Shown here piece after piece: positions 49,301 through 53,143 of a stretch of 64,000 bases of DNA; positions within the stretch are counted from its first letter, which is position 1; every line of letters starts with the position of its first letter. The notes under the pieces are model-generated. The model searched no databases. It was not told the DNA's origin and saw only the letters and a program-made list of their open reading frames with translations. Location of the stretch: assembly GCF_006345805.1 (NCBI RefSeq), contig NC_043015.1:49414001-49478000 (forward strand). The letters are read 5' to 3'. The translations under genes and the position numbers were made by a program. The stretch is from Octopus sinensis (Eukaryota).

Positions 49301-49905
49301 TGGGACAATCTCGACAAAGTTTGAACTCAGTACGTAAAAAGAAGACGAATCTAAATAATGCTAGTCGTTTATTGCGATACCCTGTCTCCTTCGTATACCC
49401 TGTACCACCCTTAACGAAATGCAATTATAGAAAATGTGGAAGGAAAATGACAAACATATGGCAGCAGGAAATGGGTGGAGAAAGTCAGTCAAAGAATGAT
49501 ACAGAAATTTTTATTTTGTCTTCGTCTTTTTCTTTTTTTTTCTCCCCTTCTTTTGTATTTGGGTTTTGCAATCCTTCGTGTGTGTTGTAATTTAATAAAT
49601 ATTTTAGTTAACATGAAAAATATAGGTGATATTGATAGAGAGGGGAGGAGATCTTGCAGAGTGGGTTGGGGGCGAAAGACTACAATTAAAGCTTATTTAT
49701 GCTGAATGTTTCGGCGCATTCCTCTGCATGATACTTGGCTCCTACTTTAGAGCGAGGTCCTATGTACTTGGTGAGCGAATACTGCGCTCGTCCTAGATTC
49801 AATGGCGTTACGTGATTCACAAATATTCCCTTTTCCACTGGGGATAGAAGCGTCAACCTAGCGTACGTTTACTTCAAGTGTGTGTATAGATAGATAGATA
49901 GAAAA

Positions 49906-50051: not shown

Positions 50052-50091
<40 letters not shown>

Positions 50092-50245
50092 GGGGATAAG
50101 AAAAATCAACGAAAATGCACATTGTAAATAAAAAAGGAAAGGCCTTTTATGAATGGTAACGACAGATATATACATATAGATGGACTAAGGTAGTAATAAC
50201 AGTCATATAAGTCATTATTATGAGATGATTAAAAAGTTAGAAAAA

Positions 50246-50287
50246 CAAAGCATACCATGGTTTCGTCATAAGCTATTCATTCCTTTG
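50246..50287 (-). ncRNA. Minimal hammerhead with A3-U8 variant core, inside a short unit (about 50088-50310) flanked by (TA)n
   Basis: CAAAGGA-ATGAATA-GCTTATGAC-GAAA-CCATGG-TA-TGCTTTG. Confidence 0.62.
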
Positions 50288-50675
50288 AATAAACACCGGC
50301 TAATGAACCATATATATATATATATATCATATATTATTTAATTATTGGTATTTAGACGTGAAAATATGGAATATTTCTTCCAGGCATAAACTGCATTTTT
50401 ATTCCCAATTATGTAAGGTTCTGTTCTGCCGTCGATTTCCCATTTTGTATCAAATCTGGTGTTTTTATCCTTTAGGGACCAAATAAATTTAGGTGGGGCT
50501 ATTTAGTACCTATACATACATATATACATTCATACATACCTACATATATACACATAGATACATGCATACATACACACATATACATACACATACATACATA
50601 CATACTTACATACATACATACATACTTACATACACACATACATACATACATACATACATACATACATACATACAT

Positions 50676-52230: not shown

Positions 52231-52328
52231 TGTATGTATGTATGTATAATATATAAGAATTTAAAGAAAGAAAATGCACACACTTTACGTAGTTCTCATA
52301 TAATTTTTAATATATCTTGTATTGTGTT

Positions 52329-52361
52329 TGTCGACCGGTTTCGCTTTCGCTATTCATGACA
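52329..52361 (-). ncRNA. Minimal hammerhead with A3-U8 variant core
   Basis: TGTC-ATGAATA-GC-GAAA-GC-GAAA-CCGG-TC-GACA; all stems pair. Confidence 0.72.
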
Positions 52362-53143
52362 TTAACATTTATTTAAATACGTATTTTCTTAAGAAGAATT
52401 TTTTGTCCGTGTTGTGTGAGGAGTTTACAAATGAACGATTCAACAATTAGAAAAACCTAAGGAGAGGTAATTGTTTATAGTTATTATTGTGGACAGGGAA
52501 TATAATTGTTCAGTTCAAAAACTAGAGTGGTAGGGAGAAATATGTACAGTAATGGGTATGTAATCGTGAATTAAAATATGTAAAGGGATCAAAGTTGGTT
52601 ATGCGTGCATATTTAGATATGTGCTGTATTTTTCGATGAAAAAATTTTCTTTATTTAAACGTTCTTCTAAAGAAATTGTATCTTTGCACTGGTAGAAGGG
52701 GAAAACTGTGAAATTTGGTTTGATGTTACCTGCACATTTCTCTGTTTTCACTTAAAGGAATTTGTCTGTATTCCAATGTATCTTTTCATTTCGTACAAAG
52801 AAAAGTGGCAAAATGAAGGAAATATCTTCATTTATATAGAAGATCAAAAATAAAATCACAGATGCAAAAGAAAAAAAGAAAAGAAACGAACACACAATAC
52901 TGCCAGAAAAGTATTTAAAACAACCATCAGCAGATATGGATATATAAACGCACCCGCGCAAGTTGTATAGCGCGTGCACACTCACTCTTACAAGCATCCG
53001 CGAAAATGTAAGCATACACATACGTGGGGTTTGGTGCACTCACGATCACAAAGTGAAGTAAATAGCTACTTAGTATTTATAAGAAGGGGGTGGTTAGAGT
53101 TAAACTTAATTCATCCATACCTTAAAGTGAAATATGTAAACAG

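Follow-up and report, generated by a model that had tools for sequence, protein, structure and literature searches.

Minimal hammerhead ribozymes of metazoan Penelope-like elements (PLEs) are the closest described systems to the motif reported here: they are of type I, lie in a 3′ repeat behind the RT and endonuclease, have a G10.1-C11.1 pair and a palindromic stem III that implies dimers, and are found mostly as truncated single copies (Cervera and De la Peña 2014, PMC4209133). PLE-associated hammerheads with a palindromic short stem III and dimer cleavage were also described by Lünse, Weinberg and Breaker (via the review PMC6765202). At the tertiary pair between residues 3 and 8, natural U3-A8 variants represent a compensated change (Perreault 2011, PMC3088659; Schistosoma Cercyon), and an engineered C3G/G8C double mutant is partly active (PMC11167929, PMC9901934). 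Both natural U3-A8 and natural stems II of 1–2 bp have been reported (PMC3088659, PMC4209133), the published active 1-bp stem II depending on a pseudoknot (PMC3088659). As for the host elements, Neptune/Nematis EN+ PLEs (Craig 2021, PMC8557442) encode an RT followed by a C-terminal GIY-YIG domain, with a CX4CxxC linker, a CCHH-type endonuclease and DKG, and are flanked by (TA)n, with inverted 5′ copies and, optionally, a tail.

The window analyzed here, a stretch of 64,000 nucleotides from Octopus sinensis, contains on the minus strand at 50246..50287 a minimal type I hammerhead motif with an A3-U8 core, identified by pattern scan and folding, which shares the features listed above for the PLE minimal hammerheads. 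It differs from them in its A-U pair at 3-8 (the rows examined in Fig. S3 of PMC4209133 have only C3-G8, U3-A8 and U3·G8), in the absence of an extra base between 9 and 10.1, and in a stem II that spans 1–3 bp in the octopus families vs. 4–8 bp in theirs. In comparison with the U3-A8 variants of PMC3088659, a type also present in the octopus genome, the compensated change affects the same tertiary pair in reverse orientation, with a purine at 3 and a pyrimidine at 8 (A-U, G-C). The palindromic short stem III and the PLE association are as in the hammerheads covered by PMC6765202, dimer cleavage being a prediction in our case, and the elements resemble the Neptune/Nematis PLEs of PMC8557442 except that the hammerhead core is non-canonical. 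The engineered C3G/G8C mutant has a natural counterpart in a G3-C8 sublineage nested among the relatives of the window copy (itself A3-U8), which according to the trees derives from A3-U8. No natural A3-U8 or G3-C8 hammerhead was found in a literature search that did not cover the variants of Lünse et al. 2017, so that a prior report is possible.

Read from 50287 to 50246, the minus strand gives CAAAGGA AUGAAUA GCUUAUGAC GAAA CCAUGG UA UGCUUUG, and sequence and folding agree with what an earlier note had read from it, i.e., a stem I paired at six of seven positions, a weak stem II, a palindromic stem III and a GUA site. Stem I is built from CAAAGGA (50281..50287) and UGCUUUG (50246..50252), its second pair being broken by a G·G at 50282/50251; at 50282 the family has C, and the G is peculiar to the window copy. 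The core box A3 U4 G5 A6 A7 U8 A9 occupies 50274..50280 (A3 = 50280, U8 = 50275), stem II (GCUUAUGAC, 50265..50273) consists of one G10.1-C11.1 pair and, after it, C·A and U·G, and G12 A13 A14 A15.1 (50261..50264, numbering fitted to the hammerhead consensus) leads into the palindromic stem III ACCAUGGU (50254..50261), which is predicted to form an 8-bp intermolecular duplex of −11.2 kcal/mol. A17 lies at 50253, and the hammerhead consensus places the predicted cut between 50253 and 50252; all these parts are on the minus strand. The core boxes N3-UGA-N-N8-A and GAAA and the NUH cleavage triplet are all present, with A3-U8 in place of the canonical C3-G8. The isolated sequence folds no better than its shuffles (z −0.33), and in the window copy a competing hairpin at 50275..50294 (minus strand) is predicted to bury the core box.

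Scanned with a relaxed hammerhead pattern, the window yielded four matches (raw count), and a palindromic stem III was present only in the motif described above and in a second A3-U8 hammerhead, of family F2, at 52329..52361 on the minus strand (AUGUC AUGAAUA GCGAAAGC GAAA CCGG UC GACA, site GUC). The core of the two is identical (same box at 52357-52351), as the earlier note had stated, and its description of the stems as entirely different applies to stem I, which is wholly different, but not to the others, given that the two stems III are identical except for a central AU and that each stem II begins with G-C followed by C. A heterodimer of the two motifs within the window would be weak (−3.1 kcal/mol). 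Another hammerhead-like stretch at approximately 49700-49735 (minus strand), beside a (TAGA)n run, was rejected as a loose match that was single copy in the genome search. Rfam searches with E up to 10 yielded no hammerhead in the best 150 of 261 window matches, those being microsatellite-driven.

Both window units derive from the 3′ ends of Penelope-like elements that are related to each other. The first is a 5′-truncated 3′ end (pLTR fragment) of family F1 without ORF (50089..50309, minus strand; 90.6% to the long copy L122), which lies between a (TA)n run at its 3′ end (50056..50088) and another at its 5′ truncation point (50310..50327), and ends approximately 22 nt upstream of stem I. The second is a truncated F2 element (52255..52772, minus strand), with a match to the GIY-YIG domain end at 52742-52602. 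Near their (TA)n-proximal ends both carry GAAAATGCACA (TGTGCATTTTC on the element strand), a 3′-terminal motif common to the A3-U8 families; in line with the earlier note, the plus strand of the window has exactly two occurrences of GAAAATGCACA (50111..50121 and 52270-52280). The F1 unit is a dispersed repeat with 1321 first-look candidates (40 scored, 30 fetched), a number that probably includes the sister family F3, and the F2 unit is dispersed as well (1910 candidates); the F1 unit is therefore not the single-copy sequence without structural conservation that would have spoken against the earlier note, and its core and palindrome are kept.

In long F1 and F2 copies, a single upstream ORF encodes an RT (YLDD), the linker CGRPNCGTC, which is of the CX2-5CxxC form between RT and endonuclease, and a C-terminal CCHH-type GIY-YIG endonuclease, with the DKG motif (L121 row). 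Public homologs with ≤ 59% identity carry PF00078 (RT) and PF01541 (GIY-YIG), the named ones being mostly molluscan, and the elements' own fragments score below the Pfam cut-offs. The hammerhead follows the endonuclease end by ~190–320 nt in most long copies, inverted partial 5′ copies are found in L010, L011, L013, and L030, two direct copies in L124, and an optional tail motif in 21/27 F1 rows and 4/26 F2 rows. With RT, linker and GIY-YIG, (TA)n flanks, inverted partial copies and optional tail, the F1 and F2 elements fit the Neptune/Nematis type of EN+ PLEs. Their copies derive from an ORF-bearing element by 5′ truncation at variable points, unlike the non-coding tandem units without adjoining ORF that characterize non-LTR retrozymes. 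A conserved non-coding stretch, TTACCTCCC(C)TT, precedes the core by ~65–100 nt in the long copies of F1, F2, and F3 and is also present in the distant outgroups L214 and L217; that TTACCTCCC encodes protein (LPPL) was ruled out, as the ORF ends ~190–320 nt upstream of the core. In some F3 copies (L390, L391, L393, L396, L397), the hammerhead is directly preceded by a short duplication covering stem I and some of the core.

A3 and U8 are present in all 27 F1 rows (34 aligned, 7 duplicates dropped) at a mean divergence of 3.8%, while among F2 rows A3 occurs in 32/32 and U8 in 31/32. Strict F1 is a modest family of 36 exact pattern matches, and 33 of these 36, obtained with positions 3, 7, and 8 free, are A3-U8. 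The earlier note had expected other copies to show perfect stems I and II around a fixed AUGAAUA. The core is indeed fixed at 3 and 8, and stem I is 7/7 in the family majority (25 C, 1 G, and 1 T at the position of 50282 in 27 rows), but the expectation failed for stem II, the F1 majority keeping GCUUAUGAC; stem II consists of the single G10.1-C11.1 pair in every F1 variant tabulated vs. 2–3 pairs in F2 and F3. The palindrome ACCAUGGU was found in 21/24 F1 rows and corresponds to ACCGGU, the stem III of F3, with a central AU; the F1 stem III gained 2 nt and remained palindromic with a stronger duplex (−11.2 vs. −8.3 kcal/mol). A 3′-terminal motif matching TGTGCATTTTC occurs in 19/24 F1, 18/28 F2, and 7/11 F3 rows and, for the U3-A8, U3·G8, and H families combined, in 1/33. 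As inserted copies decay neutrally, invariance within a family reveals no more than the source element's state, and the evidence for selection was consequently taken from the comparison of families.

We consider it reasonably probable that the motif at 50246..50287 is a decayed copy of a PLE 3′-end hammerhead with an A-U 3-8 pair, likely going back to one ancestral change shared with 52329-52361, whose source would cut slowly as a stem-III dimer; the window copy itself is predicted to be inactive and is probably dead. By analogy with the PLE hammerheads of PMC4209133, two pLTR hammerheads of a tandem transcript would pair through ACCAUGGU into a shared stem III, the A3-U8 pair would form, G12 and the 2′-OH of residue 8 would catalyze cleavage after GUA, and the element RNA would be processed in this way. 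Since the acid is the 2′-OH of residue 8 (PMC6155905, on the roles of G12 and G8), the base at this residue is exchangeable in principle, and general statements on the competence of Watson-Crick 3-8 pairs are made in PMC2920678 and PMC3088659. In a crude calculation that omits extra helices, the double-hammerhead fold lies above the cofold minimum by 10.2 kcal/mol for intact F1, 24.6 for the window copy, and 0–2.5 for F2-type sequences; F1 is predicted to be the weakest scaffold and to misfold by burying the core, the window copy even more so. Any Watson-Crick 3-8 pair is reportedly cleavage-competent (a result ascribed to Przybilski and Hammann, 2007), with rates that depend on the context.

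The one-pair stem II of F1, its core-burying hairpin and its gap of 10 kcal/mol to the dimer fold would also agree with a hammerhead that is functional in the lineage but has lapsed in F1, where A3-U8 would be inherited baggage in a non-folding scaffold, a process taken further in family K (L204, L340-L359; 475 candidates). In the latter, the 3-8 residues are U3·U8, stem II is absent and G12 → U is seen in 19/20 rows; a stem I of 5 bp and the palindrome ACAUGU are retained, and the family spread despite its broken hammerhead. Furthermore, cleavage was dispensable for insertion in vitro, where insertion by an anole PLE was unaffected by hammerhead mutants and no reads ended at the site (PMC11167929). 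Such a lapse is nevertheless unlikely in our estimation: all core residues and a 7-bp stem I are kept in the F1 majority, stem III lengthened without losing its palindrome, and the same G-C then C·A stem II is found in the G3-C8 ladder described below while stem I was being repaired there.

Regarding the origin of the A3-U8 core, the protein tree joins its families, F1/F3 and F2, with moderate support (IQ-TREE SH-aLRT 89 / UFBoot 85; FastTree 0.889), apart from the U3-A8/U3·G8 sister families and the C3-G8 outgroups. The U3-A8 families are members of the same clade (~50–55% protein identity), and the outgroups L212, L219, and L222 have C3-G8 in the same short-stem design with palindrome. C3-G8 is likely ancestral, because the nearest metagenome relatives with a readable motif have C3-G8 together with a similarly short stem II and a palindrome. 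The A3-U8 core is likely one inherited change common to F1/F3 and F2. That it arose twice, once in each, is rather improbable, and would concern the history only, being compatible with the mechanism proposed above: AU tests do not reject trees in which F1/F3 or F2 joins the U3-A8 group (p 0.23 and 0.107) and the ORF regions of F1 and F2 are only ~65% identical in DNA, but the best trees unite them and the end motif GTGCATTTTC is common to the A3-U8 families and nearly absent from others. The earlier note had seen the same double change in different scaffolds and deduced a Penelope lineage that uses the A3-U8 core; the lineage is supported by the tree, the two separate changes give way to a single inherited one as the most likely history, and the lineage is not exclusively A3-U8, for it contains a nested G3-C8 group.

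This nested group, which provides the strongest evidence for covariation, lies in F3, where the 100 matches listed of 168 comprise 84 A3-U8, 11 G3-C8, and 5 mismatched copies. When 13 C8 copies were compared with 11 A3-U8 copies of the same stem II, clear differences were restricted to 4 of 303 columns (one further column being noisy), and two of the four are positions 3 and 8. A DNA tree of the ORF region (31 rows, hammerhead excluded) places F1 first, then F3, and then a ladder of G3-C8 subfamilies (L360-L372, L400-L429, L438-L439), along which an inserted stem I pair goes from C·C over C·A to U-A, i.e., a stepwise repair, and in which a G-C then C·A stem II also arose. A topology with F1 and the A3-U8 copies of F3 as a group of their own (p 0.029) and a root inside G3-C8 (p 0.041) were both narrowly rejected, and the possibility that G3-C8 was ancestral to F1/F3 is disfavored by this tree and these tests. 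A tree of the short 3′ ends, in which 29/48 rows were kept and the outgroup rows lost, remained without resolution. Taken together, the 303-column comparison, the ORF-region tree and the stem I ladder indicate a joint change of positions 3 and 8 within a source lineage.

Covariation of the 3-8 pair was also followed genome-wide, with one gap pattern for all 3-8 classes and the reversed pattern as control. The A3-U8 pattern had 1455 matches (control 152), G3-C8 had 88 (control 0), and the pattern with neither A3 nor U8 had 3961 (control 726), mostly U3-A8 with some U3·G8 among the 100 matches listed. By contrast, A3 with non-U8 gave 373 matches vs. 239 in the control and non-A3 with U8 gave 160 vs. 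259, with no hammerhead family among the 100 matches listed for either; the matches listed for these mismatched classes were scattered decayed copies and unrelated repeats. Free variation of positions 3 and 8 without covariation, which would have contradicted the earlier note, is not what was observed: by pattern counts and subfamily comparison the pair is Watson-Crick with covariation across families, and all four Watson-Crick pairs are present among related families. In 18 representatives, hand-picked as intact (leaving out L231, family K, family H, and the G3/G5 types), 3-8 is paired in 18/18 (8 A-U, 5 C-G, 4 U-A, 1 U·G), which was reached by 1 of 100000 shuffles that ignore relatedness. 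The first four pairs of stem I are formed in all of them by 3–5 pair types each, i.e., through compensatory changes; all have a palindromic stem III and none has G at N17. The paired changes in related families suggest that the predicted self-cutting fold was kept by selection, and we infer from them purifying selection on the source elements.

Several further hammerheads were observed during these searches. Canonical C3-G8 copies in ~360-bp tandem or inverted units with no ORF found (L163-L190) are retrozyme-like and make up most of 108 matches (control 7). GC-rich hammerhead repeats (L107:2051-2080, L036:1143-1172, L197:2255-2284, L192:1498-1528) have U3-A8 (stem II GGGG/CCCC, stem III ACGCGU) or U3·G8, family H (L097, L103, L172, L183) has C3-G8 and U3·G8 copies in one family with a poorly pairing stem I, and a metagenome PLE relative (L231:1531-1562, single copy seen) has a hammerhead that is well formed apart from a C3·U8 mismatch. 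The tight A3-U8 pattern had 0 matches in viral contigs, and PLE relatives in prokaryote genome contigs (likely host contamination) provided no further A3-U8 hammerhead.

The fold could also have been kept for a non-catalytic task, such as RNA dimerization through the palindrome or recognition by an element protein, with an A3-U8 version that does not cut. Family K, with its stem I and palindrome retained after the loss of G12, would fit such a task, as would two results on activity: minimal PLE hammerheads had low activity in vitro (PMC4209133), and when all double mutants of a type III hammerhead were scanned, the G:C swap alone rescued the 3-8 pair, other mutants having low activity (PMC9901934). 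We regard this as improbable, even more so than a second origin of the core, given that the compensated change falls on the 3-8 pair, which belongs to the active conformation (PMC3884650), and that the families examined all retain G12, GAAA and a non-G17. A chance resemblance arising in AT-rich repeats, to which the shuffling result and the lack of a hammerhead among the best 150 Rfam matches might point, is refuted with near certainty by the family evidence, namely the fixed place behind the endonuclease end in most long copies, the tenfold excess over the control, the covariation across families and the canonical hammerheads of outgroups at the same place.

Natural U3-A8 cores were already published, and what is new here is the nesting of G3-C8 in an A3-U8 lineage and the four-difference comparison. 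We tentatively propose, with somewhat less than even confidence, that one PLE clade walked its 3-8 pair through C-G, U-A, and A-U and then to G-C while stem II shrank to 1–2 pairs, and that every paired state would cut. The window copy is an ordinary decayed fragment, and its relatives offer a naturally matched series for cleavage assays, in which A-U can be compared with G-C on a common scaffold and in which U-A, U·G, C-G, and a family with a broken motif are also represented. PLE hammerheads have been suggested to possibly just parasitize the elements (PMC8557442); a compensated switch at a pair of the active conformation, between subfamilies with two other differences in 303 columns, speaks for the active fold being under selection. 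If the proposed history is true, A3-U8 would be an undescribed natural active core, standard CUGANGA descriptors would miss thousands of ribozymes in such genomes, and the compensated switches would be direct evolutionary evidence for in vivo selection on PLE hammerhead catalysis.
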